IMG/VR virus record: IMGVR_UViG_3300005098_000001
Source: an uncultured virus (IMG/VR IMGVR_UViG_3300005098_000001)
Lineage: Duplodnaviria > Heunggongvirae > Uroviricota > Caudoviricetes
Strand: one strand, 5' to 3'
DNA: 20,000 nucleotides
Shown here: in pieces, positions 2 to 20,000 of the stretch
Position numbering within the stretch: position 1 is the first letter of the stretch
Layout of the letters: every line of letters begins with the position of its first letter
The notes under the pieces: generated by a model
Database searches by the model: none
The model's input: only the letters and a program-made list of their open reading frames with translations
What the model was told of the DNA's origin: nothing
Made by a program: the position numbers and the translations under genes

Positions 2-943
2 CTAGCCCCGGCTCCGGACATTTTCTTCAGTCCAGAACTTAGGGGAAGAAGTCAAGAGGGTGATCGTGCTTTTAGGAAGAGTAGAAAAAGATTAGACAAG
101 TGTGAGGGTGCAATCACAATAACCTGTTATCCAGAAGGAGGTGGAGATAAAGCAGGTTTAGGTTTGCTTTTAAAACATTTAACAGCTGGAGTTACAAGTG
201 GTACACTAAAAGGTACTGCTGATGGTCTTTCAGAAGATTACTTTCTTCATCAATTTATTCCAAAAGATAGATATGAAAATCTTCAAGCAGGTTCTACTTA
301 TAAAGTTTATGGTTTGACAGTACATGTTGGTAGAGAGGATGATTCAGGAACTCTTAGAAATTATCCTTATGTAGGTTGTAGAATTAGGAATGCTACATTT
401 TCTTGTGCTGCTGGAGAAGAATTAAAATGTTCTGTTGAATTTGTTGGTAGAAAGGCTAAAGATGCTGGGACTGCTAAGGTTCTTTCTTATACAAATTTAG
501 ATCCTTGGATGTTCGATGAAGCTGAAGTTACTATAGATGGAAATTCAAGGGATATAGACTCGTTTGAAGTTACAGTTACAAATGGAATGGCAGAAAGTGG
601 AGTCTTAGGTACAAATGTATTAGGTAGGGTAAGATTTTCTGGAATGAGGTCAGTTACTGGAAATATTACTGCTCCTTTTGAAGGTTGGGTGAAAACATTA
701 TATGATAAGTGGAGAAATCATCAAACTGCTTCTCTTAATATAAAGTTTACAAAAGGAACTTATTTTATATTTGAAATTGATCTTCCTAAGATTGTATTTA
801 CTGGAGCTCCTCCTTCTGTTGGTGGCCCTGAGGAATTGATAGTTACTCTTCCATTTCAAGCTCTTTGGGATGATTCGAATAATTATGATGTTAAGTTTAA
901 ATTAGGAAATCGTGATGAGACCATAGGCTATGATATAACATAA
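2..943 (+). CDS. Phage tail tube (major tail) protein, 5'-truncated
   Basis: The frame of the listed 164..943 ORF is open back to base 2 (LAPAPDIFFSPELRGRSQEG...CEGAITITCYPEGGG...GLGLLLKHL), so the true start is upstream of the window. Beta-rich tail-tube-like motifs (YVGCRIRNATFS, LKCSVEFVG, FEVTVTNG, RSVTGNIT, IDLPKIVF, VTLPFQA). Lies directly before the chaperone and tape measure genes. Confidence 0.85.
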   Translation, partial: LAPAPDIFFSPELRGRSQEGDRAFRKSRKRLDKCEGAITITCYPEGGGDKAGLGLLLKHLTAGVTSGTLKGTADGLSEDYFLHQFIPKDRYENLQAGSTYKVYGLTVHVGREDDSGTLRNYPYVGCRIRNATFSCAAGEELKCSVEFVGRKAKDAGTAKVLSYTNLDPWMFDEAEVTIDGNSRDIDSFEVTVTNGMAESGVLGTNVLGRVRFSGMRSVTGNITAPFEGWVKTLYDKWRNHQTASLNIKFTKGTYFIFEIDLPKIVFTGAPPSVGGPEELIVTLPFQALWDDSNNYDVKFKLGNRDETIGYDIT

Positions 944-1423: not shown

Positions 1424-1773
1424 ATTGTGATGATGTTGTTCTAGTTAAAGAAGGAGATTTTTATATTGTTTTTTCTGAGTCTATTAAAGGAAAATTTCAG
1501 CTTACTTTAGGGGATATAAAATTTAAGGTTTGTCCTTTAAGTTGGATAACTGATGATAGTTGGTTGTATTTAGAATTATTTCAATTGTGTAAGATTTTAA
1601 ATGTTCTTCCAGAAGAGGGAGGTTTATTAGATCAGGATAACAAAACAATAGAAGCTTTTCAAATAATTAATTATGAATTTGAAAAGGCTAAAGCTAAAGC
1701 AACAAAAACTTTAGATTTGAGGACTTATGGAAAAGGATTTAACTTTAAGAATCAGGGCAAAAAATTTAGCTAA
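1330..1773 (+). CDS. -1 frame extension of the tail assembly chaperone (gpGT-like; fused product 959..1773)
   Basis: The -1 frame reads LQAACRWAVSGKQWDCESCSEKERRARNCAIDC...KVCPLSWIT...LPEEGGLLDQDNKTIEAF... without a stop and is continuous with the listed 1564..1773 ORF, whose TTG start has no SD. Confidence 0.8.
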   Translation, partial: LQAACRWAVSGKQWDCESCSEKERRARNCAIDCDDVVLVKEGDFYIVFSESIKGKFQLTLGDIKFKVCPLSWITDDSWLYLELFQLCKILNVLPEEGGLLDQDNKTIEAFQIINYEFEKAKAKATKTLDLRTYGKGFNFKNQGKKFS

Positions 1774-4087
1774 GGCTGCTTTTGAGGAGGTTAAAACTGG
1801 TTTAAATAGATTAGGAAAAGTTTTAAAATCAGTAGAGTCTCAGGTATTTTCTTTTAAAGGAGCAATTGCTGCTCTAGTTGCTGCTTTGGGTGCTAGGGAA
1901 TTAGGTTCTAGTTTACATACTGCGGGTACAGATATTGAGAAATTTAGATCTCAGCTTCAAGCATTATATCAAGGAAACATTGAATTAGCAGAAAGAGCTT
2001 TACAAACTGTTATAGAATTTTCTGAAAAGACACCTTTTTATACTAAAGATGTTGTTGATGCTTTTATTCTTTTAGAAAGTACAGGAATAGGTGGTTCTAA
2101 AAGACTTCTTACAGTTCTTGGCGATACTGCTTTTATTTTTAACCGAAATATTAGTGACGTAGCTTCTGCTTTGATAAGTATGGAAACTGAAGTTTGGAGG
2201 AGACTTGGTGTAGTGATTGATAGAACTGGAAAAAAAGCAATACTTACATCTGGTAATGTTAGAATGGAAGTGGATAATAATATAGCTTCTATCCGTGCAG
2301 CACTTGTAGATCTCTTAGAAAAAAGATTTTCTGGAGGAATGAAACAGGCTGAGAAAACCTTTACTGGTATTATGAGAATAATTGGATCTATCTGGGACAT
2401 TTTTCTCTATCAGGTTACTGAATCAGGCCTCTGGGACTATATTAAAGCGGTTTTTCAAACTTTGTTGGATTATATTAATAAATTTAGAAAAGAAGGTAAA
2501 TTAGATGAATGGGCTAAAGATATCTCTAAAGCACTAGTATGGTGTTTCCAAAAAGGTGTTGAAGCAATTGGACTTTTTATTAAAACTATAGATGTCTTAA
2601 AAATGGCTTGGGAAGGAGTTAAAGGTGTAATTGCATTAGCCTTGTCTACAATACTTACAGGAATATCTGGAGTTCTAGAAAGTTTAGGGAAAGTAGTAGG
2701 ATTTTTTAAGAAAGATTGGGGAGAAGCACTTCAAAGTGCATCTGAAAGTCTTAGGGATCTTAAAGATAAACTTCTTAGTAGTGCTAGTGAATCCTTTGCT
2801 GCAGTAGATAAAAATTATCAAAAAGTATTAGAACACCATGAGGCTTTTCAAAAATTAGAAAATGAGATCAATGAAAGGTTTAAACAAAATTTACAGGTTA
2901 CTCAACAGTTATCAGAGGTTAAGCATTCAGCAGCACAATTAGAATTAAAAGATAGGACAAAGATTGCAGAACAGGAAGAAAAAGATAGAAAAAGAAGACT
3001 AGAAGAAGAAGAGGAAAGAAAGAAATTTGAGGAAGAAAGGTTAAAGTACTTTGAGAAAATTAAAGAAGAAATGATGTCAAAGTCTGAACTGTATGCCAAG
3101 AAAATGGAAGAAGAAATTGAAAAATATGCAAAGACTGAAGAAGAAAAGGAATTAATAAGACAATACTACTCTCAAAAAGTTGAAGAAGCAAAACAAAAAG
3201 AATTAGAAGAAGAAAGACAGCGTCAAGCTGAACTTCTATCAATAAAACTTACAGGTAATAAAGATTTTATTGATGCAACAAAGGCTGATTTAGAATATAT
3301 TGCAAAACTATATGATGACTTTTCTAAACAATATGGTGAAAGTTTAGCAAAACCTATGACTGCTTTCATAGCTGGCATTGATATGGCTATAAATGAACTT
3401 CCAAAAAAGAATGAACTCATTGCAAAGATGGGAAGAGACTTAGTTAATAATTTAGATGAAGGATTTAGAAATTTATTTAAAGGACTTGTAACTGAAGGGA
3501 TAGGTGGAGTAAAAGATGCTTGGAAACAATTTTGTAGTACTATGAAGGATACTTTTTTAGATACTTTAGCTGAAATAGCTGCTTCACAAACCTTACGACT
3601 TTTAAAACATGCAATTATTAAAATATTTGAGGATATACTTAAATCTAAGGCAGTTCAAGGAGTGATAAGTTTATTTGAAAATCTTTTTCATGTAATTATT
3701 CCTGGTTTTGATTTTTTAAAGTTGCCTCAAAGTGTAAGTAGAATGAATATTCCTAATGTTACAAGTGCACCAGTAGTTGGATCAAAGCTGTATAGGAGAA
3801 GACCTGTTCCTGTTAATTATCTTTATGGAGGAAGAAGAGGAGTTCCTTCTGGTGGGATAGCTTATCCTTTAACTCCTTCTCCTGAAAAAGAACTTACAAT
3901 TTCTCCTGTTGAAATGACTCCAGAAACTAAAATGGTAAGACCTACAGTGATTAATGTAAATATTGAAGTTAAAACCTGGGATACAGCTACGATGCAAAAA
4001 ACAGTTAGAAATCAAATTATTCCTAATATTGTAGAAAATATTAGAAATTATGGTATCTTACATTCAGAGATCAAAAGAGTTGTTTAA
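1727..4087 (+). CDS. Tail tape measure protein (copy 1)
   Basis: 786 aa, helical; tape-measure-type N-terminus (LTLRIRAKN; FSEKTPF..DVVDAF...LGDTA), E/K-rich coiled coil, C-terminal VINVNIEV..D motif; follows the chaperone frameshift pair. Confidence 0.9.
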   Translation: MEKDLTLRIRAKNLAKAAFEEVKTGLNRLGKVLKSVESQVFSFKGAIAALVAALGARELGSSLHTAGTDIEKFRSQLQALYQGNIELAERALQTVIEFSEKTPFYTKDVVDAFILLESTGIGGSKRLLTVLGDTAFIFNRNISDVASALISMETEVWRRLGVVIDRTGKKAILTSGNVRMEVDNNIASIRAALVDLLEKRFSGGMKQAEKTFTGIMRIIGSIWDIFLYQVTESGLWDYIKAVFQTLLDYINKFRKEGKLDEWAKDISKALVWCFQKGVEAIGLFIKTIDVLKMAWEGVKGVIALALSTILTGISGVLESLGKVVGFFKKDWGEALQSASESLRDLKDKLLSSASESFAAVDKNYQKVLEHHEAFQKLENEINERFKQNLQVTQQLSEVKHSAAQLELKDRTKIAEQEEKDRKRRLEEEEERKKFEEERLKYFEKIKEEMMSKSELYAKKMEEEIEKYAKTEEEKELIRQYYSQKVEEAKQKELEEERQRQAELLSIKLTGNKDFIDATKADLEYIAKLYDDFSKQYGESLAKPMTAFIAGIDMAINELPKKNELIAKMGRDLVNNLDEGFRNLFKGLVTEGIGGVKDAWKQFCSTMKDTFLDTLAEIAASQTLRLLKHAIIKIFEDILKSKAVQGVISLFENLFHVIIPGFDFLKLPQSVSRMNIPNVTSAPVVGSKLYRRRPVPVNYLYGGRRGVPSGGIAYPLTPSPEKELTISPVEMTPETKMVRPTVINVNIEVKTWDTATMQKTVRNQIIPNIVENIRNYGILHSEIKRVV

Positions 4088-7000
4088 ATGGCAAAAGAAT
4101 TACTCCTTACTGTAAGAGCAAAAAATCTTGCTTCTCCTGTATTCAGTGAAGTTTCTAGAGAAGTTAAAAAACCTTTTATTCCAAGAACTTTAAAGGTTTT
4201 AGGTTTAATAGCCCTAGGTTATGAATTTAGAAAATTATTTAATGCTTATCTTAGAACTCAAGCAGAATTAGAAAATTATTTAATCCAAATACAAATTGCA
4301 GAAAATATATCAAAAGAAGAAGCTTATGAAATACTTTCTCAGTTAAAGAGTTTTGCAAGAATACTTCCTTTTGAAACATCAGATATAATAAGAGCCTGGA
4401 TTCTTCTACATTCTGCAGGCTTTCCAGTAACAATTGAACATTTGAAAATAATTGCAGATACTGCTTTTGTATTTAATAGAACTATGACAGATGTTGCTTC
4501 TGCGATGGTTTCACAAGAGACAAGAGTACTAAGAAATTTAGGTTTGATTATTACTAAAGAACATGATAAATATAGGATAGTTGCTGGAAAATTACAAAAA
4601 GAGATAGATGCTAATAGGATTTCTCTATTTAATGCAATTTTGGAGGCACAAAAACAATATGAAGGGGCTTCAAGCAGAGCTTATTATGATGTATCTGGTT
4701 TAATAATGATTTTTAGGAGTGAGTGGTGGGAGTTTTTGGCTTTAATAAGAGAAAAAGGTTTGGCTGATTATATATTGGCCGCATTATTTACATTAGAGGA
4801 CTTTATTCTTAAAAAGAAAGAACAAGGAATTTTAAAAGGTTGGGCTGAGAGAATTTCAGAAAGATTAACTTATTATATGGATATAATGGTTAAAGCTAGT
4901 ATTTTATTTTTACAATCTTTAAAGGAAATAATAGGTACCTTTGCTTCTCTTTATGATTACATTGTGAAATTTGGAAATTTTTTGAGTTCTTTGACTTTAC
5001 GTGTTAGACCTCCCGAAATAGTAATCGAAAAGAAAACAATTGGGATTGGTAATTTAGAAAAATCAAAAAATAAATGGATTGATGCATTAGATAATTTTAC
5101 TACAGCTTATACACAGTTTTGGAGTGATGTAAATCAAAGATATAGTAAAAATAGAGAAGAAACTAAAAAGACCCTGGAATTAATTAAGGAAAAAGAGAAT
5201 TTGGAATTACAGACTAATTTGGACAGATTAAAGCAAGAAGAATTAGAAATACAAAAGAGAAGAGAGAGAATAGAAGAAGAAAAGAAAAGAGAAGAAGAAA
5301 GACGGAAATACTTTGAAAATCTTTTAAAGAAAATGCAAGATTTTTCAGAGGCATTGGTAATTTGTTATGAAAGAGATAGAAAAGTATATGCAAAGACTAT
5401 TGAAGAAGAAGAACAAATTAGAGCATATTATCAACAAAGATGGATTGAAGCAATTAAACATAGATATGATGTTTTAATAGATATGATGGATCAGGATAAG
5501 CTTTTGACTGAGGAAGCTTATTTAAATTATACAAATGCGTTTTATAAAAATGCTAGAGAATTAAAGGAACTTTTAGATACGTATTATAAAAAATTTGGTT
5601 CAACCTATGCTCAAGAAATTCAAAAAGCTAAAGTAGATCCAAGAGAAATTATTGGAAGAGCTAATGAATTACTGAGTGAAATTCCTTTGATTGACCAATA
5701 CTTTGAATATGATTTGGGAAAAGCCTATTCTTCTATTCCTAAAAAGATTCATGAGTTTTTTACAGCTAAAGGTATTAAAGTTGAAGGCAAAACTTATCCT
5801 GGGTTTTTTGAATATTTCAGAACAGGTTTTATTAATGATGTTAAAGCAACTGCAAAGGAGATTAGAAGTTCTCTTTCATATAGATTTAATTTAGAAAATT
5901 TTAATGTATGGTTTTCTGATGTTTTTACTTCTAGTGCAGTTCAAAGATTTTTTAGTTTGGTTGATACTCTTTTTCATCCTAATGTAGATAATGTTTTTCT
6001 TAGTAAGTACACATCAAGTTTAAAAAGTGCAATAATTCAATCAGCAGAAAAACTTGCTGTTAAATTTATGGCTAAATTATTTGGAGTTGCAATTTCTGAA
6101 TTAGGTTGGTTTTTTGCAAGTTTAAATGCACTTAAGTTGGTTAGAGGATTATTCAGTATGTTTGGATTAAAACTTGGACCTGGTGCGAGTGGGATTGGTC
6201 ACTTTGGTTGGTTAATGGGGATTACAGTAAATCCAATTTATGGAGGTTTGATTGGGGCTTTTATTGGTACTATAATTGGGGCTGCTTTAGATGCTTTAGG
6301 TTTTTTTAAGGCTGAAAAGACAATTTATCAATTTGCAGGTCCATTTTATAGTATTGCAGTTACTCCTACTGTTCTTTTTAAAGCAGGAGGAATTGAAACT
6401 GCAGTGACAATTGACCACCTTATGATACCCTCACTTGCTGCTCAATTCTCTTTTAGATTAATGGTACTTCAAAAGATTGCAGAAGTCAAATCTTATGTAA
6501 GAGAACAATTAGTTGGAGTTCAAAGTCGTAAACTTGGAGCAACTATATCAATTGCTTATTATAAAGCACTTGCAAATTGTGCAGGCTGTGAACCTGGGGC
6601 CCTTCCTTCTGCTATCTTTGTTTCGAATACTCCGGAAGGAGCAATAGGTAAGATGTATTCTTTTTTAATGGACTTTGCTTATTATTATATTGATGAAGCG
6701 GCTTTCTGTGATGCTATTTATAAAGTTCTTCCTCCAGAATATGCAGGACCTACTTATTCTGAGTATGCAAAAAGTATGATTGAATCAATTAGAAGTTCAC
6801 TTATTACTCCTCGTGAACCAGAAGAAAAATGGAAATGGTGGAAAGAAAGTGTTTATTCAGAATCTACTGGAATAGCAGTAAGAAAATTAGAAGAAATAAA
6901 GCATAGAATGTATTATACAAGTGAGACCTATTGGACTGAGCATTTAACTCCTGTTTATGGAGAAGGTATTCCCAAAACTTTTACTATAAGAACTCCTACA

Positions 7001-7531
7001 AAGTGGGAAGTAGTGAGAGAAACTGTAGTAGAAAAGAGATTTAGAACAGTAAAAGTTTTGAATTTTATTAAAAAGATGGCTATTACATATACAGTAGGAG
7101 GGGTAGAAAAAACTCGATGGATAGATATTTATAGTGCAAGTTATTATACTTATCCAGAAACAATCGTTAAAACTATAGAGAAAAAAGTTCCTACTAAATG
7201 GGAAGAAAAAGTAATACAATATACAGAAAGAAGAATTAAAGGATATTTGGTAAGAATGGTTCCTAGAGTTTCTTATACTCCTATTATTAGTCCTGAAGAA
7301 CAAGAATTATTAAGTGTAAGTGGTGCATTAGGAGCTTATTTATATCATTTTAGACCTGGAAAGTTTATGACTGTAAGCTATGGAAAAGAAAGAGAACTTG
7401 CTAGACATATTCTACCTGAAGAAATTTTTAATGTTACTATTATTGGAACAGATTTAGAAGGAAATCCAGGACATGAAAAAATCAATGAAGCAATTGATGA
7501 TGCATTTAGGGAGTTAAATAAATGGCTATAA
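4088..7531 (+). CDS. Second tape-measure-like protein (paralogue of 1727..4087)
   Basis: 1147 aa, abuts the stop of copy 1. Colinear similarity: MAKELLLTVRAKNLA vs MEKDLTLRIRAKNLA; DTAFVFNRTMTDVASAMVSQETRVLRNLG vs DTAFIFNRNISDVASALISMETEVWRRLG; YAKTIEEEEQIRAYY vs YAKTEEEKELIRQYY. Gly-rich hydrophobic segments in the C-terminal half. Confidence 0.8.
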   Translation: MAKELLLTVRAKNLASPVFSEVSREVKKPFIPRTLKVLGLIALGYEFRKLFNAYLRTQAELENYLIQIQIAENISKEEAYEILSQLKSFARILPFETSDIIRAWILLHSAGFPVTIEHLKIIADTAFVFNRTMTDVASAMVSQETRVLRNLGLIITKEHDKYRIVAGKLQKEIDANRISLFNAILEAQKQYEGASSRAYYDVSGLIMIFRSEWWEFLALIREKGLADYILAALFTLEDFILKKKEQGILKGWAERISERLTYYMDIMVKASILFLQSLKEIIGTFASLYDYIVKFGNFLSSLTLRVRPPEIVIEKKTIGIGNLEKSKNKWIDALDNFTTAYTQFWSDVNQRYSKNREETKKTLELIKEKENLELQTNLDRLKQEELEIQKRRERIEEEKKREEERRKYFENLLKKMQDFSEALVICYERDRKVYAKTIEEEEQIRAYYQQRWIEAIKHRYDVLIDMMDQDKLLTEEAYLNYTNAFYKNARELKELLDTYYKKFGSTYAQEIQKAKVDPREIIGRANELLSEIPLIDQYFEYDLGKAYSSIPKKIHEFFTAKGIKVEGKTYPGFFEYFRTGFINDVKATAKEIRSSLSYRFNLENFNVWFSDVFTSSAVQRFFSLVDTLFHPNVDNVFLSKYTSSLKSAIIQSAEKLAVKFMAKLFGVAISELGWFFASLNALKLVRGLFSMFGLKLGPGASGIGHFGWLMGITVNPIYGGLIGAFIGTIIGAALDALGFFKAEKTIYQFAGPFYSIAVTPTVLFKAGGIETAVTIDHLMIPSLAAQFSFRLMVLQKIAEVKSYVREQLVGVQSRKLGATISIAYYKALANCAGCEPGALPSAIFVSNTPEGAIGKMYSFLMDFAYYYIDEAAFCDAIYKVLPPEYAGPTYSEYAKSMIESIRSSLITPREPEEKWKWWKESVYSESTGIAVRKLEEIKHRMYYTSETYWTEHLTPVYGEGIPKTFTIRTPTKWEVVRETVVEKRFRTVKVLNFIKKMAITYTVGGVEKTRWIDIYSASYYTYPETIVKTIEKKVPTKWEEKVIQYTERRIKGYLVRMVPRVSYTPIISPEEQELLSVSGALGAYLYHFRPGKFMTVSYGKERELARHILPEEIFNVTIIGTDLEGNPGHEKINEAIDDAFRELNKWL

Positions 7532-8716: not shown

Positions 8717-8721
8717 TAACT

Positions 8722-9634: not shown

Positions 9635-9646
9635 TAGGAGGAAGTA

Positions 9647-9859: not shown

Positions 9860-9913
9860 TAAATCTATTGTAAAGTCTTCGTAAAGTAAAAAAATTTTAT
9901 TTTTCTTGAAAAA

Positions 9914-9966
9914 AAGTATTTACATTTAAGATAATATGTACTATAATATATATAGAAAAGGAGGAA
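9914..9966 (+). promoter_or_regulatory. Repeated promoter+RBS cassette, copy 1
   Basis: TTTACA (9919-9924), 17 nt, TATAAT (9942-9947), then AAGGAGG; A/T tracts upstream; 52/53 identical to 10838-10890. Confidence 0.85.
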
Positions 9967-9969
9967 CAG

Positions 9970-10176: not shown

Positions 10177-10217
10177 AGTTCTTGTAAAGCAAAAAAAATT
10201 GATTTTTCTTGAAAAAA

Positions 10218-10256
10218 AAGTATTTACATTTAAGATGATATGTACTATAATATATA
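10218..10256 (+). promoter_or_regulatory. Repeated promoter cassette, copy 2
   Basis: TTTACA (10223-10228), 17 nt, TATAAT (10246-10251); 38/39 identical to copy 1, with similarity extending upstream to about 10172 (vs 9869). Confidence 0.85.
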
Positions 10257-10293
10257 CAAGATGAAAGAAAATAACAAAAAAGGAGGAGAAAAG

Positions 10294-10839: not shown

Positions 10840-10890
10840 GTATTTACATTTAGGATAATATGTACTATAATATATATAGAAAAGGAGGAA
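10838..10890 (+). promoter_or_regulatory. Repeated promoter+RBS cassette, copy 3
   Basis: TTTACA (10843-10848), 17 nt, TATAAT (10866-10871), AAGGAGG; starts within the TAA stop of the preceding gene. Confidence 0.85.
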
Positions 10891-10895
10891 AAAGA

Positions 10896-11108
10896 ATGAA
10901 GGGAAGGAAAATAAAAAAGAAAAAAAGAGAAAGAAAGTTTTTTATTACTTGTCAAGGTTGGAGAGATTATGGACTTTATATTCAGAATTTTGATCATTGT
11001 GGAATACCATTTGCTGATTGGGATTATCTAGGTTCCTTTCCTAGCCCTAATGAAGCTCGTAAGTTTGCTAAAAAATTAGCAAATAGAGAAATTTCTCCAA
11101 TTTTCTGA
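10896..11108 (+). CDS. Hypothetical small basic protein
   Basis: Start reassigned to ATG 10896 after the cassette SD; 70 aa; K/R-rich N-terminus, C-terminal LGSFPSPNEARKFA. Confidence 0.7.
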   Translation: MKGRKIKKKKRERKFFITCQGWRDYGLYIQNFDHCGIPFADWDYLGSFPSPNEARKFAKKLANREISPIF

Positions 11109-11122
11109 GAAAGGAGGTTTTA

Positions 11123-11404
11123 GTGATGAGAGTAAAAATTTTATCTAAGAAAGAATTAGAGGAAATTTATGGGCAAAAGTGGGAAGATTTAGCAATCTCA
11201 GATGAAGCTTATCCAGTTGATGAGAATGGAATTACAAAGGAAGAATTAGAATTCCTAGTAAAAGTTGCTAAAGAATATCAAATTGAGGTTAAAAATCTAG
11301 AGTATCTTGAAACTACTCCTTCTTTAGTTTCATTTGTTTTAAGAAGAGATGAGGATCATCAAGTCTATTTATCTACGCTAGATTATCTTTTAAGAAGGAG
11401 GTGA
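11123..11404 (+). CDS. Hypothetical acidic protein
   Basis: AAGGAGGT SD before GTG/ATG; 93 aa. Confidence 0.7.
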   Translation: MMRVKILSKKELEEIYGQKWEDLAISDEAYPVDENGITKEELEFLVKVAKEYQIEVKNLEYLETTPSLVSFVLRRDEDHQVYLSTLDYLLRRR

Positions 11405-11410
11405 ATACAA

Positions 11411-12055
11411 ATGAATGAAAGTTTTAAAGTAGGTGATAAGGTCGTTATTAAAAGACATCCTGACAATCATTACAATGGAGTAGAAGATAAGATTGTGTTT
11501 ATCTATGGAGGTTCTTGTCTAATAGAAAGTGACAGTATAGTTTATGAAGTGAGATTAAATTGGTTAAAAAGCCAAAGAAAGGAGGTGAAAAAGATGAGAA
11601 AGTGTTTATTGGTTTTGGTTACTTTAGTTTTCATTACTGCTTGTTCTCCACCTTCTGCATATCAGCATGTAGCGAGGAAATTAGGGTTGGATGCGGATAA
11701 GTACATAGGACAAAGTTGGGAGACAGTTCATGAGGACCTATTACAGAATAATTTCAAAATTGTAAAACCTAAAGTTGGGGCTCTTAGGATGTTAAATTGG
11801 AGATTACAAGGATTGAAGATCTGGGTGGCCTATAAGGGATTGAATAGGTATGTAAAGACTGCTTGTAGGACTTCTGGATATAGGATCTACTGCGATAAAA
11901 TCTATTTAAGGAAGTACCTGATTGCTAAGATTGGCGTTGATAAGGATAATATAGTGAGAAAAGTTAGTTATGATTTTCAGCTTAAGGAAATGGGTTTTGA
12001 TTATATGGGAACTCCTTTTATCTTCAATAAAAAGGAATGGAGTAAAAATTATTAA
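11411..12055 (+). CDS. ORF with N-terminal KOW/SH3-like segment read in frame into a predicted lipoprotein (internal start 11594)
   Basis: AGGAGGTG before ATG 11411 (MNESFKVGDKVVIK); second AAGGAGGTG before in-frame ATG 11594 (MRKCLLVLVTLVFITAC, signal peptide with lipobox-like ITAC). Confidence 0.7.
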   Translation: MNESFKVGDKVVIKRHPDNHYNGVEDKIVFIYGGSCLIESDSIVYEVRLNWLKSQRKEVKKMRKCLLVLVTLVFITACSPPSAYQHVARKLGLDADKYIGQSWETVHEDLLQNNFKIVKPKVGALRMLNWRLQGLKIWVAYKGLNRYVKTACRTSGYRIYCDKIYLRKYLIAKIGVDKDNIVRKVSYDFQLKEMGFDYMGTPFIFNKKEWSKNY

Positions 12056-12067
12056 GGAGGATTAGAG

Positions 12068-12223
12068 ATGCATTTAGTTTTATCACAAAATTTGGAAATT
12101 AGGTACAAAAATAACTTCTACATTGTTATAGTTTTTGGCGAGGAAGTTGCAAGGTTTAAGCATGCAGATGATTTACTAGATTATATTTTTAAAGTCATTA
12201 AAGAGAATGAAGGAATTGTGTAG
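12068..12223 (+). CDS. Hypothetical small protein (51 aa, not in ORF track)
   Basis: AAGGAGG 7 nt before the ATG; MHLVLSQNLEIRYKNNFYIVIVFGEEVARFKHADDLLDYIFKVIKENEGIV*; its stop overlaps the next SD. Confidence 0.7.
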   Translation: MHLVLSQNLEIRYKNNFYIVIVFGEEVARFKHADDLLDYIFKVIKENEGIV

Positions 12224-12233
12224 GAGGTGCAAA

Positions 12234-12461
12234 ATGTTAGGACAACAATTAAGAGAATTAAAGGTTGAGGAAATTAAAAAATTTTCCTCAAGGAAAGGGG
12301 TTAAAAAAATTGCAGTTGAAAATTTTCTTCTTAGTGTGCATAATAATGTCACCAAAAGTGTAGCTCTAGATAATCTTTTCTATGATGCCAAGATCTATAA
12401 ATGGAATGCTGCAACTGTCAAGGCCATTTTAGATGGAATTAACTTAGCAGCAAGAGGATAA
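12234..12461 (+). CDS. Hypothetical small protein (75 aa)
   Basis: Start reassigned to ATG 12234 after AGGAGGT; RKGVKKIAVENFL...DAKIYKWNAAT..AI..GI; last gene before the terminator. Confidence 0.7.
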   Translation: MLGQQLRELKVEEIKKFSSRKGVKKIAVENFLLSVHNNVTKSVALDNLFYDAKIYKWNAATVKAILDGINLAARG

Positions 12462-12471
12462 TCCTCTCCCT

Positions 12472-12510
12472 TGTGTAGCCGGTTGACGCCGGCTACACAT
12501 CTTTTTTCTT
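12472..12510 (+). terminator. Rho-independent terminator
   Basis: Perfect 11 bp stem TGTGTAGCCGG (12472-12482) / CCGGCTACACA (12489-12499), loop TTGACG, followed by TCTTTTTTCTT; 10 nt after a stop codon. Confidence 0.9.
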
Positions 12511-12614
12511 CTAAATATTTTTTTATTTAGAACTATTTAAGTGTGCTTCTGGCTTTAAAATTACCCAGAGTCATTATTATGCTTACGTGTTCTTTTTTGA
12601 TTTATAATACTAAT

Positions 12615-14141
12615 ATGAAAAAGATTAATCCAAAATTATTAAGAGAATATCTCAAAAATCCTTTAAAATTCCGTTTAGAACAGTGGATAATGGATAATGG
12701 TCAAGTTTTAGAAAAGACAGTTACAGATTGGCAAATCAAATTTATTCTAAAACCATTAGATGATCCAAGGTATAAGTTGTATTATATACAGCTTCCAAAA
12801 AAGGTTGGAAAATCAACTTTTGCTGCTTTTGAGGCAGTAACAAGGTTATTTTTAGAAGGACTTCAAGACCCAACTTGGGAGGGTTACTTTTTAGCTGGGA
12901 CTGAAGATCAAGCAAAATATCTTTTGGACAAAGCAAAGAAATTGATTGAGAGAAATCCTAATTTTAAAGGAGTCTTAGTTCCTCAAAGGGAAAGAATAAT
13001 ATTTCCCGCAAGAAGAGTTGAATTGAAAATTTTAGCCTCTGAGTATAAATATACTCATCAGTATAACCCAAATTTCTTTGTCTTTGATGAATTTTGGAAT
13101 CAACCAGACGATAAACTTTTTACTTCAATTTATGCCTCTATGGTAAAGCCAAGATCTAAGGGTTTAATAATTACAAATGCTGGTGAAGTAAAAATGGGAA
13201 TTTGTTGGGAAATAAGACAAAAATGTAGAAAGAATCGTCCATATAATTGGTATTATTACGAACCAACTGATATTCATATAAACCCAATTTTAAAACCTCA
13301 TTGGATAGATGATTCATGGCTGGAAAGTCAAAGAACTACATTAAGTGAATCCGAATTCAATAGGTTGATCTTGAACCAATGGGGAGACAAAAAACCCGAT
13401 GAAATAAAGTTTTTGCCCGATGAAGTTATAGAAAGTGCAATAGATGATAATTTAGAGTGGGGAATAAAAGAAGTAGATCCCGAATCTATTTATATTTTAT
13501 CAGTAGATATTGGGGTTGCTAATGACAAAACTGTAGCTCTTTTAATGAAATTTAAAGATAATGAGTGTACTTTAGAAGATTTAAAACTTTGGAGAGGATC
13601 TAAGTTCAAAAATGTTGAAATAAAAGAGGTAGAAGAATACATATTGAGAGTTGAAGAAAAATATAAAAATAGATTAGTGATTACAGGAGATACCTGGCAA
13701 GCAGTTTATCTTTTTCAAAGATTAAAAGATAAAGGACTGAAAGTTATTGAAGTGTATTTGCAAAATTTACAACCTAAATTAGCAACTTTAATGAAAGATG
13801 CATTTCTAAATGAAAGAATCAAATTTCCTTATCATGAAATTTTAATTTGGGAATTAAAGCATTCTATGATCGATACTTCAGAAAAATTAAATTTAGCAAG
13901 GATAAAAAGAACTTATGGTAAAAGAAGTTTAGATATAGTCTTTGCAATTGGGATGGGACTTATAACTTATGAAAGAATTAGAACTGGAGAAGTTTATCTC
14001 GAATTTGTATCTTCTTCTAGTTTTTTTAAAGATAAATCTTCTCTCCCTAGACACTTTGGAAAAAGAAAAATACAAATTGAAGAACCATTAGTAGAAATAT
14101 CTCAAAGAAGATCTAGTTTCCAATATTGGAAGGTTTTCTAA
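12615..14141 (+). CDS. terL: Terminase large subunit
   Basis: Q motif (TDWQ), Walker A LPKKVGKST, Walker B FFVFDE, motif III ITNAG, RNase H-like nuclease ILSVDIG...DKT, D.WQA and C-terminal DIVFAIGMG. Start most likely ATG 12615 (frame open from 12543). Confidence 0.92.
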   Translation: MKKINPKLLREYLKNPLKFRLEQWIMDNGQVLEKTVTDWQIKFILKPLDDPRYKLYYIQLPKKVGKSTFAAFEAVTRLFLEGLQDPTWEGYFLAGTEDQAKYLLDKAKKLIERNPNFKGVLVPQRERIIFPARRVELKILASEYKYTHQYNPNFFVFDEFWNQPDDKLFTSIYASMVKPRSKGLIITNAGEVKMGICWEIRQKCRKNRPYNWYYYEPTDIHINPILKPHWIDDSWLESQRTTLSESEFNRLILNQWGDKKPDEIKFLPDEVIESAIDDNLEWGIKEVDPESIYILSVDIGVANDKTVALLMKFKDNECTLEDLKLWRGSKFKNVEIKEVEEYILRVEEKYKNRLVITGDTWQAVYLFQRLKDKGLKVIEVYLQNLQPKLATLMKDAFLNERIKFPYHEILIWELKHSMIDTSEKLNLARIKRTYGKRSLDIVFAIGMGLITYERIRTGEVYLEFVSSSSFFKDKSSLPRHFGKRKIQIEEPLVEISQRRSSFQYWKVF

Positions 14142-14274: not shown

Positions 14275-16452
14275 ATGCCTATTCAATGGTTAAGAGAAAA
14301 TTTTTTGGAGGATGTAGAAAGTTTTGTAGATCAAGATGATGAACCAATTTTAGAGCCAACTCCAAATCATGGAACTGAATATCTAAATGACTACAATACT
14401 GTAACCTTCTGGTCAGGTAAATCTAAATCAAATGCTAGAATCCTTGCTAATTTAGGAACTTCAATTGCAATAGATACATGTATTGTATTAGGGACTTTAA
14501 AGGATTGTGAAAACCTAGTCTTGAGATATGGAGATACTAAAAGTGTTCCTTTTTCAAGAACTCTCCCAAAACCTTTAGATGGAACTAGCTTTGGGACACT
14601 TTTAAATGTAGGAACTTATCAGTATTGGAGATTAGATATTGAAACCAATAAGGTTCCTGCTTTAAGAAGAGGGCAAATTCATGCGAGTATTTATGGCCAG
14701 CCAAAAGAAAATCGTTTAGGATTAAATAGTGGAGATAGTTTAATTTGGAGTTTGGGAGATAATTTAACAAGTTACATTAGAGAAAGCTTTAATTGTTATC
14801 AAGGAGCAATAAGATTTAGATTTGTTCCAAAGTGGAGTGGAACCACATTTGGGACAAAATCAATTCTATCAATGGGGCTTTATGTTTCCCTTACAGATTC
14901 CTTTTATGAAAGATTCAAACTTAAAAAGATAGGAGAAAAAATTCGATTAGAAATTAACCCTGGAAGTGGTTGGCTTAAAACAGAGGTTTCTGGCACAAAG
15001 ATTGTTCCTTATGGTACTTATCACTTAGTATTTACCTGGAATTATCAAAATGAAGTAATTCCAGGGTATTATATGGCATTGTATTTGGATGGAAATGTAG
15101 GAACAATCAATGAAGGAACAAAAAAGAATAATCTCAGATTATCATCAATGTATTCTTTATGTTTAGCCTATCCTTCTATTGAACCTAATGACTTAGGGAT
15201 AGAATCTCTATTAATTACTGATTGTCATTGGGGAAGTTCTAAAGTAGAAAGTGACTATTTAAATAAACCAAGAACACTGATGAAAATTAGTACTTGTATA
15301 TTTGCTCCTTTCATCTCTAAAAATTCAGATACTAGATTAACAGATGATCCCGACTATGGTCAAGGTTGGGTAGAATCAGATATTTTTTATTGGAAAAAGA
15401 GCCAAGAGGAAACTGACTTCGTTATAAGAGTAAATGACGTAACTTATCCAAGTAAAGGTAATTGGGACTTCGATCAAAATCCTAGTATTATGGGAACTGC
15501 AGAAATCCAACTTTCTAAAGATACATTAAAATATTTTAGATCAGTAACTGGATCTTGTTTTATTCCTACTTCCGAAGGAACTTTAGATGCAAGTATAAGT
15601 TATATTGATACAATTGAATCTGGCTATCACTTTGGATATGTTTTAGTACATACCTCTGAAAACCCTTATAATATGAAATACACATTCAATATCTTTGGAA
15701 CTAGTGGAACTTCTAGCCTTTTTGGGACAGATTTGTTGGAGGGAACATGGAATGAAATTGATTATTATATAAAGGTAGATGAAAAACAACAACTTAGATG
15801 GACTTTTGGAATATGGGGAACAGTAAATTACACTGGAACTGGAACTTTCCTATTTAAAGTTTCAGAAATCAGCCTTTATAAAGGTGTAACAGAAACTGGA
15901 ACAACACGTTGGTACAGTAGTGCAGGAACGACTAGTCTTGAAGGAAATTGGGGAACTTTTAAATGGTTCTTCTATAAGGCAGGAACTACCGGTATTTATG
16001 ATGAATCAGGAACAGTCCCAGTTTCTCATTATTGTTTTGAAGTAGGAACAAGAGGTCCTTTAGCTTTTAATTGGAAAACTAAGTCTGAAAAACATATAAT
16101 CCATGAATGGTATTTAGGAAAAAAGATTGAATTAAGCGAAAATCCAGAGGCAATTTATAATATTAAAGATCATTTTGATACTGATACTTATACTTCAAGA
16201 GGAGGAAAACATTTCTCTTATTATAAGTGGCAAAATAGAACATGGCAATTTACATATAGCTGTATGTCAGATGATGATAGAGATATTTTGAGAGAAATTA
16301 TTAGAAAGTGTAAAGGACCTTATAAACCATTATATTTCGTTTTATATCCAGAAAATCCAGAGGTTACAAGAGCAAGGCTTACTCAAGATCACGAATGGCA
16401 GGATGTTATTGGAGGTTTTAATTATACCTTAATTTTGGAAGAAAGTAAATGA
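14275..16452 (+). CDS. Putative distal tail protein with discoidin-like N-terminus and inserted LamG/lectin-like domain(s)
   Basis: N-terminal ILANLG..IAIDTCIVLG...YQYWRLDI; internal GAIRFRFVP.W...YHLVFTWN...LYLDG (concanavalin/LamG-like); C-terminal TSRGG......RTWQFTY..MS...KG..KPLYF...YTLILEE resembling Dit/gpM-type proteins; very Gly-Thr rich. Confidence 0.6.
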   Translation: MPIQWLRENFLEDVESFVDQDDEPILEPTPNHGTEYLNDYNTVTFWSGKSKSNARILANLGTSIAIDTCIVLGTLKDCENLVLRYGDTKSVPFSRTLPKPLDGTSFGTLLNVGTYQYWRLDIETNKVPALRRGQIHASIYGQPKENRLGLNSGDSLIWSLGDNLTSYIRESFNCYQGAIRFRFVPKWSGTTFGTKSILSMGLYVSLTDSFYERFKLKKIGEKIRLEINPGSGWLKTEVSGTKIVPYGTYHLVFTWNYQNEVIPGYYMALYLDGNVGTINEGTKKNNLRLSSMYSLCLAYPSIEPNDLGIESLLITDCHWGSSKVESDYLNKPRTLMKISTCIFAPFISKNSDTRLTDDPDYGQGWVESDIFYWKKSQEETDFVIRVNDVTYPSKGNWDFDQNPSIMGTAEIQLSKDTLKYFRSVTGSCFIPTSEGTLDASISYIDTIESGYHFGYVLVHTSENPYNMKYTFNIFGTSGTSSLFGTDLLEGTWNEIDYYIKVDEKQQLRWTFGIWGTVNYTGTGTFLFKVSEISLYKGVTETGTTRWYSSAGTTSLEGNWGTFKWFFYKAGTTGIYDESGTVPVSHYCFEVGTRGPLAFNWKTKSEKHIIHEWYLGKKIELSENPEAIYNIKDHFDTDTYTSRGGKHFSYYKWQNRTWQFTYSCMSDDDRDILREIIRKCKGPYKPLYFVLYPENPEVTRARLTQDHEWQDVIGGFNYTLILEESK

Positions 16453-18884
16453 ATATAGACGAACGACTAGAAAAGATTGGAAAAGGATTAGAGGAAACAA
16501 GAGATTTAAGAATTATTCTACAATTGACAATAGGAACAATCAATAGGTATTTTACAGACTCTGAAAACGTAATTGACCTAAAAGGAACCTATTGTGAACC
16601 AAGGATTGTAGATTTTTCTCCTTTAAATGAAAGTTATAATCCAGAGAATCTCGAATTTCAAATAAGTGATATGTCAGTAGATTTAGCCAATGGAGACTTA
16701 TACTTTTCCAAACATCCTTTTAACCATCAAATGTTAATTGGAGCAACCGGAAAGTTATATATTGGTTATGAAGATATAGAATTTGAAAATTGGAGATGTA
16801 TTATAGATGGAAAAGTCAATAAAGTAGTTTGGCAAAATTTACTTTTTAAAGTTAATATTAGTGATTCATTAAAAAAATTAGATAGATTAATTCCAGATTA
16901 TACATTAGGAACTTCAGAATTTCCAGAATTAGACAGAGATTACATAGGAAAATCACTTCCTTATTTTTATGGAGATTGGACAGGAGGAACAACCTCTTTT
17001 GTAGAAATTCTAATGGGAACAGAAACCTTAAGAGGAAATTGGGCAGGAACATATTGGTCAAGTGGAGGTGGTCATATCTTAGATCATTACCAAGGAACTT
17101 TGAGAATAAGTCCTACTGGATTTAATTGGGATATTGGAACAATTGCTCCAGGAACAAGATTTTTATGTCTAAAGCAATTTGGAAATAAAGTCTTTTTAGG
17201 TGACAATAAAGGGAATGTCTATTCTTTTTCAGATCCCAGGATGAGAACCTTAGAAAAAGTTCATGTTGGAACTTATAGTTATTACGCCGATAATTGGATT
17301 CAGACAATGGAGGAAAAGCCAATTTTAGGAACAAGCCATCTCTTTGTAGGAGTTGGAAAAGCTTTATTAAAAACTTTAGATGGAGAGAACTTTGAAGAGG
17401 TCTGGAAGTTTGAAGGTAGAATATCGAAAATGAAAACAAGTAAGGATAAAAAATATCTTTATGTAGCAATTGACACTCCTAGGAGTATCTTGGCTTCCGA
17501 ATCAGGAACACATAACTGGCAAAATATAACTGGAACTACTACTTATTATTTTTGGGATGCAACTATTTTTGGAACTAGCACTTACTTTGCCGCAGACGGA
17601 GGAAATGTTTTTAGGATTACAGGAACAAATGTTGAAGTTCAAAATTTAGAGTATTGGAGGAGTGTCAAACATATTATAAGTAGTTATAAATATCTATATG
17701 CAATAAGCGAATATATGTTAAATTACAAAGCATATATCTGGAGATATGGAGGAGATAAGTGGGAAAAGATAATGGTAAAAGAACATCCATTTCATACCCT
17801 CTTATTTTTCAAAAATAAAGTTTTTACTGGGGCTTATGTCTTATATAGAGAACCAACTTATCCAGGCGGTAAATTTGAAGCAATACCAATTTCTAATGAT
17901 AGAAGAAAATTTATCCTTTCAAGAAGATACATAAATAAAGCTGATATATGGATTGGTAAATGCCAATTAAAAAGTTATTATACAATTGAACATGGTACTC
18001 TCTATAATTTTGGAACTAAAGTTCTTACATATTTAAGAATTCTTGATGATATAACAGATGATGAAATTGGAACTAAGATAGTTACATTTAATCCTTGTTG
18101 TTGTGAGTATGGAACAGTTGCTCCTGATATACTTAAAGATATTTTGGTTTCAAATGAATTAGGAGCTTTTGGAACTGCCGGGACTTCCTTTGATGTTTCT
18201 AAAACAAATTTCCCAAATTCTAGTCTTAATGTATACATTACTAAACAGATTAGATTAGGGGAATTAATTAGTGATATAGCAAGACAAAATTATGGTGTAG
18301 TCTATTTTGAAGGAGGTCGTCCTGAATTTAAGATCTTAAAAGATTTAGAAGAAGAATCAAGCTCAAAGGAAATAAATAAAGATGAAATATTAGAGTTTCA
18401 ATTAGAAAGAAGTATTGATGTTATTACAAATGAAGTAAAAGTTTATTATAATTATAATGAAATACAGAAAGTTTATAGATCGCTTTTGACACTTTTAGGA
18501 ACCAATGCTTATTTAGAATATGGAATTAAGCAATCAATGATACTCCATGGAAGATATTTAGTAGATGATTCTTGGGCATTAAATGTTGCAAGAAGATGGC
18601 TTAATGCGTTACAGGTTGGTTATTATAAACTTTCTCTCTCTCTACCTTTAAAGTTTTGTACTTTGGGTCTGGGAGACGTAATTTCAATTACTTATGATGA
18701 AGGAGTATCAAGAGAAGGAGGCTTCAATAATAAAAAATTTAGAATTTACTCGATTAAAAAAGATTTTTCCAGCTTTAGAACAGATATAGAAGCTTTTTCA
18801 CCAATAGAGATGTATCCATTAAGGGAAGATTATCCAACAATGTTAAGTTGGAATGAGCATGTAGTAATAGGAGGAACTACATGA
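16449..18884 (+). CDS. Putative tail tip/baseplate hub protein with inserted beta-propeller
   Basis: ATGA overlap with upstream gene; hub-like N-terminus (SVDLANGD.YF, IIDGKV, GKSLPYFYGD) and C-terminus (NEVKVYY, YG......YL.D...A...ARRWL, LGLGDVISIT, FRIYSI); central blade-like repeats. Confidence 0.65.
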   Translation: MNIDERLEKIGKGLEETRDLRIILQLTIGTINRYFTDSENVIDLKGTYCEPRIVDFSPLNESYNPENLEFQISDMSVDLANGDLYFSKHPFNHQMLIGATGKLYIGYEDIEFENWRCIIDGKVNKVVWQNLLFKVNISDSLKKLDRLIPDYTLGTSEFPELDRDYIGKSLPYFYGDWTGGTTSFVEILMGTETLRGNWAGTYWSSGGGHILDHYQGTLRISPTGFNWDIGTIAPGTRFLCLKQFGNKVFLGDNKGNVYSFSDPRMRTLEKVHVGTYSYYADNWIQTMEEKPILGTSHLFVGVGKALLKTLDGENFEEVWKFEGRISKMKTSKDKKYLYVAIDTPRSILASESGTHNWQNITGTTTYYFWDATIFGTSTYFAADGGNVFRITGTNVEVQNLEYWRSVKHIISSYKYLYAISEYMLNYKAYIWRYGGDKWEKIMVKEHPFHTLLFFKNKVFTGAYVLYREPTYPGGKFEAIPISNDRRKFILSRRYINKADIWIGKCQLKSYYTIEHGTLYNFGTKVLTYLRILDDITDDEIGTKIVTFNPCCCEYGTVAPDILKDILVSNELGAFGTAGTSFDVSKTNFPNSSLNVYITKQIRLGELISDIARQNYGVVYFEGGRPEFKILKDLEEESSSKEINKDEILEFQLERSIDVITNEVKVYYNYNEIQKVYRSLLTLLGTNAYLEYGIKQSMILHGRYLVDDSWALNVARRWLNALQVGYYKLSLSLPLKFCTLGLGDVISITYDEGVSREGGFNNKKFRIYSIKKDFSSFRTDIEAFSPIEMYPLREDYPTMLSWNEHVVIGGTT

Positions 18885-20000
18885 GGTATCGTTTTGCAGG
18901 AGTTTACTTGGCACAGAAAGGAGATCAACTGACCTCTGTTCCTTATGCAAAAGTTTCGATTTATCTTGCTGGATCGACTACTCCTGCAACTATATATACA
19001 ACTGCTGAAGGACCTAATTATATTTCTCAAACTCCACAGCTTACTACAAATAGATATGGTGAGTTTGAATTTTACATAGATGAAAATGATTATTCCGGAA
19101 CCCAAAAATTTAAGATTGTCTGTGAAAAGCCAGGATATGAAACAAAGACATGGGATAATGTAGCAATTCTTCCTTTAGTATCTGAAATTGACAATATTAG
19201 AGGAATTCCAGTTACAGGTCTTGAAGGAACAATCCAGCCCTCAGATCTTTTACATTATCAAGGGACAAAATTTGTTCCTAATAACATAGATGAGCTATTA
19301 GGAGATTATTATGATCCTTCTGTAAATGATTTTCTTTGGTACGATGGAACTCATTTTATTGGAACACAATATAGTGTTGGAGGCGGAGGAGGAACTTGTG
19401 ATGCTGATTATATTAAGGGGATTCCTGTCACAGGCCTCGAAGGAACGATCCAACCTTCAGATTTATTACATTACCAAGGAACAAAATTTGTTCCTAATAA
19501 TATAGATGAATTGCTGGAAAATTATTATAACCCTTCAGCAAATGATTTTCTCTGGTATGATGGGACTAAATTTGTAGGAACACAATACAGTACTGGTGGA
19601 GGTGGTGGTGGAACTTGCGATGCCGATTACATTAAAGGAATAGAAATAATAGAACTTCAAGGGACAATTCAGTCTTCAGATCTACTTTATTATGAAGGAA
19701 CTAAGTTTTCAATTAGGAATGTAGATGAAGCATTAAAGGAATATTACAACCCTCAGCAAAAAGATCTAATAATTTATTTTGGAACTCAAGGTACTAATTT
19801 TCAAGTAAAACATATAGATAGTGTTCTAAGGGATTATTATAATCCTTCTGATAAGGAACTTTTGAAGTACGATCAATCAGGTAGTGCCTTTCAATTAAGA
19901 AATATAAATGAAATATTAAGGGATTATTATAATCCTTCTGATAAGGAACTTTTGAAGTACGATCAATCAGGTAGTGCCTTTCAATTAAGAAATATAAATG
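18881..20000 (+). CDS. Virion fibre protein with tandem repeats, 3'-truncated (not in ORF track)
   Basis: AGGAGGA SD and ATGA overlap; open to window end (373 codons). N-terminus AKVSIYLAGSTTPATIY...LTTNRYGEFEFYID resembles fibre/tailspike attachment domains; then P..D.L.Y.GT.F repeats and poly-Gly hinges. Confidence 0.8.
   Translation, partial: MRYRFAGVYLAQKGDQLTSVPYAKVSIYLAGSTTPATIYTTAEGPNYISQTPQLTTNRYGEFEFYIDENDYSGTQKFKIVCEKPGYETKTWDNVAILPLVSEIDNIRGIPVTGLEGTIQPSDLLHYQGTKFVPNNIDELLGDYYDPSVNDFLWYDGTHFIGTQYSVGGGGGTCDADYIKGIPVTGLEGTIQPSDLLHYQGTKFVPNNIDELLENYYNPSANDFLWYDGTKFVGTQYSTGGGGGGTCDADYIKGIEIIELQGTIQSSDLLYYEGTKFSIRNVDEALKEYYNPQQKDLIIYFGTQGTNFQVKHIDSVLRDYYNPSDKELLKYDQSGSAFQLRNINEILRDYYNPSDKELLKYDQSGSAFQLRNIN
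19196..19826 (+). repeat. Coding repeat, 216-219 bp (72-73 aa) period, two close copies and one diverged
   Basis: Units begin I[RK]GI at 19196, 19412, 19631; GIPVTGLEGTIQPSDLLHYQGTKFVPNNIDELL is identical in units 1 and 2. Confidence 0.9.
19827..20000 (+). repeat. Exact tandem coding repeat, 90 bp (30 aa) period, runs off the window
   Basis: 19827-19910 is identical to 19917-20000 (84 nt); encodes RDYYNPSDKELLKYDQSGSAFQLRNIN. Confidence 0.95.

Follow-up and report, generated by a model that had tools for sequence, protein, structure and literature searches.

Why do three neighbouring tail-tip proteins of an uncultured virus so often place threonine directly after glycine? The question is raised by a 20,000-nucleotide (nt) stretch of DNA (the window) from the Caudoviricetes record IMGVR_UViG_3300005098_000001 of IMG/VR, in which a protein resembling the distal tail protein Dit, a tail hub and a tail fibre are saturated with the dipeptide Gly-Thr. 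Throughout the text, GT alone stands for this dipeptide, and GT1, GT2, GT4 and GT9 are names of glycosyltransferase families. An initial annotation of the window, made from its letters, had proposed that GT is a virion-wide signal for a modifying enzyme, for example one that O-glycosylates Thr. We confirmed that the GT excess is real and far beyond both chance and control proteins, and found that it marks a subset of peripheral virion proteins and not the whole virion. With a probability of about 0.5, the phage would encode a cytoplasmic system for protein O-glycosylation whose acceptor motif (a minimal sequon) is GT.

The number of GT dipeptides in each protein was compared with that in composition-preserving shuffles (5000 per protein), from which the z values and expected counts of the window proteins were obtained. 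The three proteins are encoded as follows:

14275..16452, + strand: Dit-like protein p725, 725 amino acids (aa), 27 GT
16449..18884, + strand: tail hub/tip protein p811 (the hub), 811 aa, 23 GT, with a weak Phage-tail_3 match in its C-terminal part (24.6 bits, cut-off 23)
18881..19999, + strand: N-terminal 373 aa of the tail fibre, 15 GT; the gene continues past the window end

Expected counts were 5.6 for p725, 4.9 for the hub and 3.0 for the cut fibre, corresponding to z values of 9.8, 9.0 and 7.9, respectively; none of the 5000 shuffles of any of the three matched the observed count, and GT was the top-ranked over-represented dipeptide in each. Pooled, the three proteins contain 65 GT versus 13.5 expected, an observed-to-expected ratio (O/E) of 4.8. 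Every count made by hand in the initial annotation was reproduced exactly, and the shuffle comparison that it had suggested confirmed the excess. The motif is also directional, as described there: TG occurs at expectation (14 versus 13.5 in the pooled proteins; 5 in p725 and 6 in the hub), 27 of the 60 Gly residues in p725 precede Thr, and pooled GS (3 in p725) and GN counts were 6 versus 11.7 and 7 versus 9.1 expected, respectively. Furthermore, the pattern GGNACN is confined to frame 0 (27/2/0 by frame in p725, 23/0/0 in the hub and 15/1/3 in the fibre) and is rare on the reverse strand, and the GT sites use all four Gly codons, as had been noted earlier, indicating that the signal lies at the protein level.

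These data bear directly on an artefact of composition or repeats, or a DNA-level GGAAC motif, as the source of the excess. Such an explanation could draw on the dominance of GGAAC[AT] at GT sites, which follows from the preferred codons GGA and ACW, and on the fibre, where repeats raise part of the count. Specifically, 72-aa repeats, each with Y-x-G-T-x-F, hold most of the fibre GT, and two repeats were located at the DNA level:

19224-19729: 216-nt unit, 2.3 copies, 75% matches
19827-20000, at the window end: 90-nt unit, exact, 1.9 copies

The fibre count is thus partly inflated, as had been suspected. On the other hand, p725 and the hub contain no tandem repeats, and a profile comparison of the two found no shared repeat family (probability 0.2%), so that GT is not the mark of one repeat family, again in agreement with the first description. 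Synonymous codon changes are frequent at conserved GT sites, indicating that selection acts on the protein. Together with the shuffles and the frame specificity, this free codon change refutes a DNA-level motif or artefact, whose probability we regard as practically nil.

We next consider the other genes of the window, which has a G+C content of ~31% and encodes the tube, the tape measures, small open reading frames (ORFs), the large terminase subunit (TerL) and the three large proteins all on the + strand:

2..943, + strand: tail tube protein, Phage_tube_2 (PF18906, E 2e-27), with its 5' end cut by the window edge
1727..4087, + strand: tape measure-like protein 1, 786 aa (phrog_973 tape measure, E 2e-22)
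4088..7531, + strand: tape measure-like protein 2, 1147 aa (phrog_973, E 6e-6)
12543..14141, + strand: TerL (TerL_ATPase, phrog_9)

The two tape measures, which serve as internal controls, contain 1 GT versus 2.45 expected and 3 versus 3.5 expected, TerL as a non-virion control contains 1 versus 0.86, and GT is at expectation in the ten ORFs other than the tube and the three GT-rich proteins. The low counts reported earlier for internal and non-virion proteins are therefore what composition predicts. The tube fragment has 6 GT (z 2.1, p 0.044). As external controls, we analysed all ORFs of at least 200 aa (n = 95) from six phages, namely Marinitoga MPV1 and MCV1, Vibrio 1.207.B, lambda, TP901-1 and SPP1; the two Marinitoga phages are thermophilic, and their tubes are distant relatives of the window tube. 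The highest z among the 95 ORFs was 2.7, the pooled O/E was 1.06, and the O/E of the large fibre, hub and J proteins ranged from 0.36 to 1.54. An excess of GT is thus not general among beta-rich tail proteins of unrelated phages, a comparison that the initial annotation had proposed. The MPV1 and MCV1 tubes contain 6 GT each (z 2.1-2.3), equal to the window tube, indicating that the excess of the latter is a trait of the tube family.

The distribution of GT among related viruses was analysed in G001, an IMG/VR contig of 79,661 bases (CheckV 100% complete) whose hub is 56% identical to that of the window, and in a second, more distant lineage comprising G002 and G003. Five of the 79 ORFs of G001 are GT-rich, and all five lie in virion modules:

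199-aa cement-like protein, directly before the capsid gene: 8 GT, z 6.5
105-aa ORF after the capsid gene: z 3.1
179-aa phrog_8123 protein: 8 GT, z 4.5
Dit-like protein: 25 GT, z 8.0
Hub: 21 GT, z 8.3

The tube (z 1.3), a 732-aa beta-helix protein (z 1.1) and a short fibre (z 0.9) of G001 are not enriched. Pooled O/E values in G001 were 2.30 for the virion modules (31 ORFs), 1.85 for a sugar cassette described below (8 ORFs) and 0.75 for replication and other genes (40 ORFs), so that non-virion proteins are not equally enriched. In the second lineage, 32 other ORFs are at expectation and the following are GT-rich:

Tube: z 4-5
Two Dit-like proteins: z ~4
699-aa hub-like protein with Phage-tail_3: z 6.6
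Cement-like protein: z 3.2
119-aa head protein: z 4.2

The extra GT of this tube lie in inserted Gly/Ala/Thr-rich loops. Comparison of G001 with the second lineage showed that the cement-like proteins, for which no homologue was found in cultured phages, keep 6 of 8 GT and gained one in an insertion, and that the small head proteins keep 2 of 4 and gained 3. In addition, the Dit-like, hub and fibre genes of relatives were found in metagenome loci L001-L006, and all are GT-rich (z 4-10). The virion-wide scope first proposed for the motif did not survive this survey: the major capsid proteins of the relatives have no GT, the tube of the window stays at family level and the beta-helix protein is near background.

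No glycosyltransferase was detected in the window by a Pfam scan, as had been stated at the outset, and relatives carry a sugar cassette directly upstream of the tube gene. The G001 cassette encodes, in order, a GT4-type enzyme, a methyltransferase, a GT2, a GT1-like enzyme (Glyco_trans_1_2), an NAD-dependent epimerase, a GT9-like enzyme, a small ORF product and a two-domain GT2. An alignment of the two-domain GT2, used to scan IMG/VR, led to a closer relative, L021, which has 85.6% nucleotide identity to window positions 3-7941 and whose tube gene is immediately preceded by a cassette of GT2, GT1-like, epimerase and GT9-like genes, a 123-aa ORF and a two-domain GT2 gene. L021 shows no GT-rich ORF because the contig ends inside the second tape-measure gene; its lineage is represented in this respect by the GT-rich genes of the window. 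In the second lineage, the GT2 is 39% and the tube 45% identical, and the order GT9-like, GT2, tube is kept; L023, which belongs to G002, represents it below. The relevant positions are:

G001 20303-22354, + strand: two-domain GT2, 683 aa, ending two bases before the tube start (22356)
L021, + strand: two-domain GT2 ending at 10216, tube starting at 10264 (48-nt gap)
L023, + strand: GT2 ending at 11992, tube starting at 12174
L023 1570-9039, upstream of the GT9-like, GT2 and tube genes: NeuB-like synthase (214 bits, cut-off 400), PseF-like cytidylyltransferase, dehydrogenases, rhamnosyl-O-methyltransferase-like protein and BFO_1060-like transferase

The conserved core of the cassette across lineages is thus a GT9-like gene followed by a two-domain GT2 gene, and in G001, L021 and L023 the cassette enzymes are encoded in or beside the structural operon, on the same (+) strand as the tube. 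The upstream genes of the second lineage suggest a sugar of the nonulosonic-acid type. The GT9-like proteins (297-307 aa) matched Pfam Glyco_transf_9 with 45.2 bits in G001 and 35.8 bits in L021 (cut-off 22) and the GT9 structure 3tov in the PDB (E 3e-6); among NCBIfam models they matched those of lipopolysaccharide heptosyltransferases I, II and III only, at 19-42 bits versus cut-offs of 134-185. We infer that the window's own genome carries the cassette just 5' of the window. The window starts ~41 codons inside the tube gene, and the cassette would lie just outside, which would explain why no enzyme had been seen.

The search for transferases outside the window, another of the earlier suggestions, thus recovered a cassette that tracks the GT enrichment: enrichment recurs in the lineages with the GT9-like and two-domain GT2 pair. 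Conversely, in 29 viral loci with only a partial or distant GT2 match, none of 427 ORFs of at least 120 aa was GT-rich (z of at least 3.5 and at least 5 GT), although these loci may lack tail-tip genes. We infer that the cassette acts on proteins and that GT is what it recognises. In this scheme, late in infection, a cassette enzyme would add a sugar to the Thr hydroxyl of GT wherever the pair lies in an exposed turn or loop of a peripheral virion protein, and the remaining cassette enzymes would extend the sugar. The candidate targets would be the Dit-like protein with its lectin-like insertion, the hub and the fibre, and in relatives also the cement-like and small head proteins. A more specific proposal, which we hold tentatively, is that GT is the two-residue sequon of an undescribed GT9-like plus two-domain GT2 system by which tailed phages of uncultured low-G+C hosts would cover certain peripheral virion proteins with sugar; selection for such a coat would have rewritten turns and loops of unrelated folds into G-T. 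The acceptor idea of the initial annotation is thereby supported in part, namely by the direction and Thr specificity of the motif, its lack of enrichment in internal and non-virion proteins and the cassette beside the tail genes of relatives, and not in its virion-wide scope.

The same distribution could reflect a reader of G-T other than a glycosyltransferase, such as an enzyme for another Thr modification, an assembly or chaperone contact, or a ligand-contact element in adsorption. The restriction of the enrichment to peripheral virion proteins and its origin within the lineage do call for a lineage-specific reader. However, searches with Pfam and PHROGs found no kinase, other transferase or dedicated chaperone in the adjoining genes, the sugar cassette being the sole conserved enzyme block in the virion modules, and GT is shared by cement-like and small head proteins, contrary to a role in receptor binding. 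We therefore consider a reader of this kind quite improbable.

To what extent is the motif maintained in relatives? A search of 5.8 billion clustered proteins yielded only three relatives of the hub, with identities of 87%, 56% and 56%; across 4 homologues down to 56% identity, 19 of the 23 hub GT do not vary. Compared with a relative of 54% identity, p725 keeps 22 of 27 GT; the five changed sites are GS (three times), QS and ET, so that a hydroxyl residue is present at all 27 (23 Thr, 4 Ser). In the hub, 4 of 22 aligned sites are changed, and there the hydroxyl residue is not retained. Among aligned relatives of 54-62% identity, the conserved fraction was 0.85 and 0.83 for the Thr of GT versus 0.46 and 0.43 for other Thr, and 0.93 and 0.89 for the Gly of GT versus 0.67 and 0.77 for other Gly.

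High conservation of both residues in proteins that are all-beta is also expected from the principal alternative, that GT is a structural motif. According to this explanation, the lineage standardised its beta-turns on G-T, perhaps for stability in long-lived or hot-environment virions, with Gly in the tight hairpin turn, the beta-branched Thr beginning the next strand and the hydroxyl capping the backbone, and the sugar genes act elsewhere, on the host envelope or on DNA. Overall, we regard it as possible but rather unlikely. In its favour, GT stands before strand-like patterns of alternating hydrophobic residues, and 3 of the 6 GT in the well-modelled hub propeller sit in two-residue hairpin turns. 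This propeller (residues ~240-450) was modelled with a predicted local distance difference test score (pLDDT) of 60-86 and matched WD40/Ycf48-like chains in Foldseek; reading of the model by hand placed all six GT in loops or two-residue hairpin turns and none in strands. The AlphaFold models are otherwise poor, with a mean pLDDT of 30.5 for p725 and 40.8 for the hub. Against the structural explanation, the beta-rich tail proteins of the six control phages, the thermophilic Marinitoga pair included, show no GT bias, and GS and GN are not co-enriched with GT, GS even being depleted. Moreover, runs such as GTSGTSSLFGT and GTGT and the GT in inserted flexible loops cannot all be hairpins, and the explanation leaves unaccounted for why the bias is confined to this lineage and, within it, to some of the beta-rich proteins, the 732-aa beta-helix protein of G001 not being enriched.

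The most direct evidence on whether the fold demands GT was obtained from the 179-aa protein, whose homologues in five cultured phages (of Acidovorax, Pseudomonas, Methanosarcina, Vibrio and Bacillus) are 30-35% identical to it. These homologues contain 1-2 GT (z -0.8 to 0.3) versus 8 (z 4.5), with similar Gly and Thr contents. At the eight GT sites, only 3 of the 40 homologue cells are GT, the others being GN, GS, ST, KT, GP, AR and so on, indicating that the fold does not require the motif in this family, the only one of the GT-rich proteins compared in this way. The alignment is read as a gain of Gly before an existing Thr at some sites and of Thr after an existing Gly at others, and the comparison of sequences showed a lineage-specific origin of the GT enrichment. 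No two-domain GT2 was found in these five phages or in three phages with related tubes, MPV1, MCV1 and Vibrio 1.207.B, in a search that recovered the positive control G001.

A further point in favour of a structural role is the avoidance of Asn-Gly, which occurs once versus 9.1 expected in the three proteins and 3 times versus 7.9 in nine others, compared with O/E values of 1.2-1.6 in mesophilic controls. As the driver of GT, this avoidance was rejected: in the GT-rich proteins of G001 the Asn-Gly O/E is 0.60 (background 0.75) and in those of G003 it is 1.09, and GT is still enriched 4.4-fold and 3.3-fold, respectively. In the window as a whole, the 12 larger ORFs contain 4 Asn-Gly versus 17 expected, and nine ORFs contain 3 Asp-Gly versus 10.2; the effect is weaker in G001 and G003. 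The avoidance may be a thermophile-like signature, hinting at a hot habitat and at heat-labile turns having been replaced.

Several observations weigh against glycosylation at GT. The support for a glycan is sequence-based throughout, and the cassette is known from relatives, not from the window or its own contig; no homologue of the two-domain GT2 is listed on a 75,714-base contig, though a 58%-identity homologue and L021 exist. Co-occurrence of cassette and GT is an association across three related lineages and is confounded by common descent. The abundant proteins that are most exposed do not carry the signal: the major capsid proteins of relatives have no GT in 303 and 311 aa, and the tube is at family background in the window's lineage. 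No autotransporter heptosyltransferase model matched the GT9-like proteins, and TibC was not among their PDB matches with E up to 0.1. Host surface glycans and DNA are further possible substrates of phage glycosyltransferases. With respect to structure, G-[T/S/N] is a classic two-residue hairpin turn, the hub GT at 294, 375 and 392 occupy such turns in the model, and the GT Thr is as strongly conserved as Trp, which a structural role explains no worse than a surface acceptor does. Note that the acceptor and turn explanations are compatible, since the enzyme may recognise G-T because it lies in exposed turns, by analogy with the E. coli heptosyltransferase Aah and its strand-loop-strand motif.

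The identity of the GT-rich proteins was examined in several databases. Neither a Pfam nor a PHROG family matched p725, and only one full-length relative was found among 1.84 billion representatives. Its residues 35-131 and ~600-715 match unnamed ~255-aa proteins (HMMER), themselves without a Pfam family, and the ESM Atlas gave as a lead a 255-290-aa phage protein together with a Laminin_G_3/F5_F8_C insertion (template modelling score 0.7-0.8 by row). We therefore read p725, on weak evidence and a poor model, as a putative Dit-like protein with a ~470-aa lectin-like (LamG/galactose-binding-like) insertion; 15 of its 27 GT are within residues 470-600. Sequence searches of the PDB with profiles of p725 and the hub gave no match, and the hub had no match in cultured phages, IMG/VR (single-protein patterns) or GTDB genomes. 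In siphophages such as lactococcal and lactobacillus phages, evolved Dit proteins carry inserted carbohydrate-binding modules, and p725 would resemble them in that a small Dit-like core is split by a large lectin-like insertion, as far as weak sequence evidence goes. We know of no counterpart to the GT saturation of such an insertion.

To our knowledge, mycobacteriophages are the only phages for which virion glycans have been demonstrated by chemical means. For Che8, Corndog and Myrna, Freeman et al. (2023, Cell Host Microbe 31:1216) reportedly described O-glycosylation of the virions, with glycans on capsid and tail-tube subunits. Virion glycosylation by phage-encoded transferases is established for mycobacteriophages, and the work is cited in PMC12582341 and PMC10955285. 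In both cases, phage glycosyltransferases, joined by methyltransferases in some relatives, presumably act in the cytoplasm on structural proteins of the phage itself. The system proposed here would differ in its targets, since the capsid lacks GT here and the candidates are the Dit-like, hub, fibre, cement-like and small head proteins, and in the use of other enzyme families, namely GT9-like plus two-domain GT2, of a dipeptide across folded domains and of a low-G+C host.

Two bacterial systems offer further parallels. Aah, a GT9-like heptosyltransferase of E. coli, recognises a strand-loop-strand motif and not a sequence (PMC3835316). Aah and TibC are cytoplasmic enzymes that share the GT9-type fold with the phage proteins and add sugars to many Ser/Thr residues of an all-beta surface protein; unlike in those systems, the pair is strictly G-T here with Thr at the turn end, and the phage GT9-like proteins are shorter and score below the cut-offs of the curated heptosyltransferase families. 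Flagellin O-glycosylation with nonulosonic acids by Maf and FlmG (PMC7591256) is likewise cytoplasmic and acts on Ser/Thr residues at the surface of a self-assembling extracellular structure. The second phage lineage resembles it in having NeuB-like and PseF-like genes beside the GT9-like and GT2 genes. However, no Maf or FlmG homologue was seen here, the window's lineage has an epimerase instead, and flagellin sites have no dipeptide sequon.

A literature search judged by titles found no Gly-Thr motif in phage tails and no phage O-glycosylation sequon. Many glycosyltransferase cassettes sit beside phage tail genes. If GT is an acceptor, phage protein O-glycosylation would gain its first simple sequence signature, one could predict from sequence alone which virion proteins are glycosylated, and enzyme and tag would form a compact pair to be tried in glyco-engineering. 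If GT is purely structural, a lineage-wide recasting of beta-turns to one dipeptide across unrelated folds would still be unusual.

Other features of the window and its relatives were also recorded. The two tape-measure-like genes are in tandem and their products have similar N-termini; the pair is kept in G001 at 24216-29985 (786 and 1135 aa). The TerL gene of the window (12543-14141, +) is embedded in the tail module, where it separates tail-assembly genes from the Dit-like gene. In relatives of 56% identity it has the same location and the reverse orientation, with 16 nt between its start and that of the Dit-like gene:

G001 31090-32601, - strand: TerL
L003 2-964, - strand: TerL
L006: TerL, likewise

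The small ORFs at ~8500-12500 of the window, among them an HNH-like one at 8722-9210, are missing from G001 in the interval from the o8083 homologue to the terminase, and the block looks like an insertion. In G001, genes for PAPS-reductase-like, PLP-dependent and radical-SAM proteins are found in the replication module (40850-41674, -; 53923-56119, +) and may form a DNA-modification pathway apart from the sugar cassette. A small ORF with a conserved CKCGCGGQIE-like or KSG/KNG...W..F.C motif recurs in several copies in tail and other modules; these copies are probably homing-endonuclease-like genes:

L023 5992-6546 and 16603-17349: motif-bearing ORF copies
G003 (reverse-oriented) 2654-3304, 12151-12795, 18531-19094 and 36145-36807: motif-bearing ORF copies

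Finally, the fibre relatives have in common an N-terminus of ~100 aa and repeats, and their C-terminal domains are swapped, one of them with a C1q match in Pfam.

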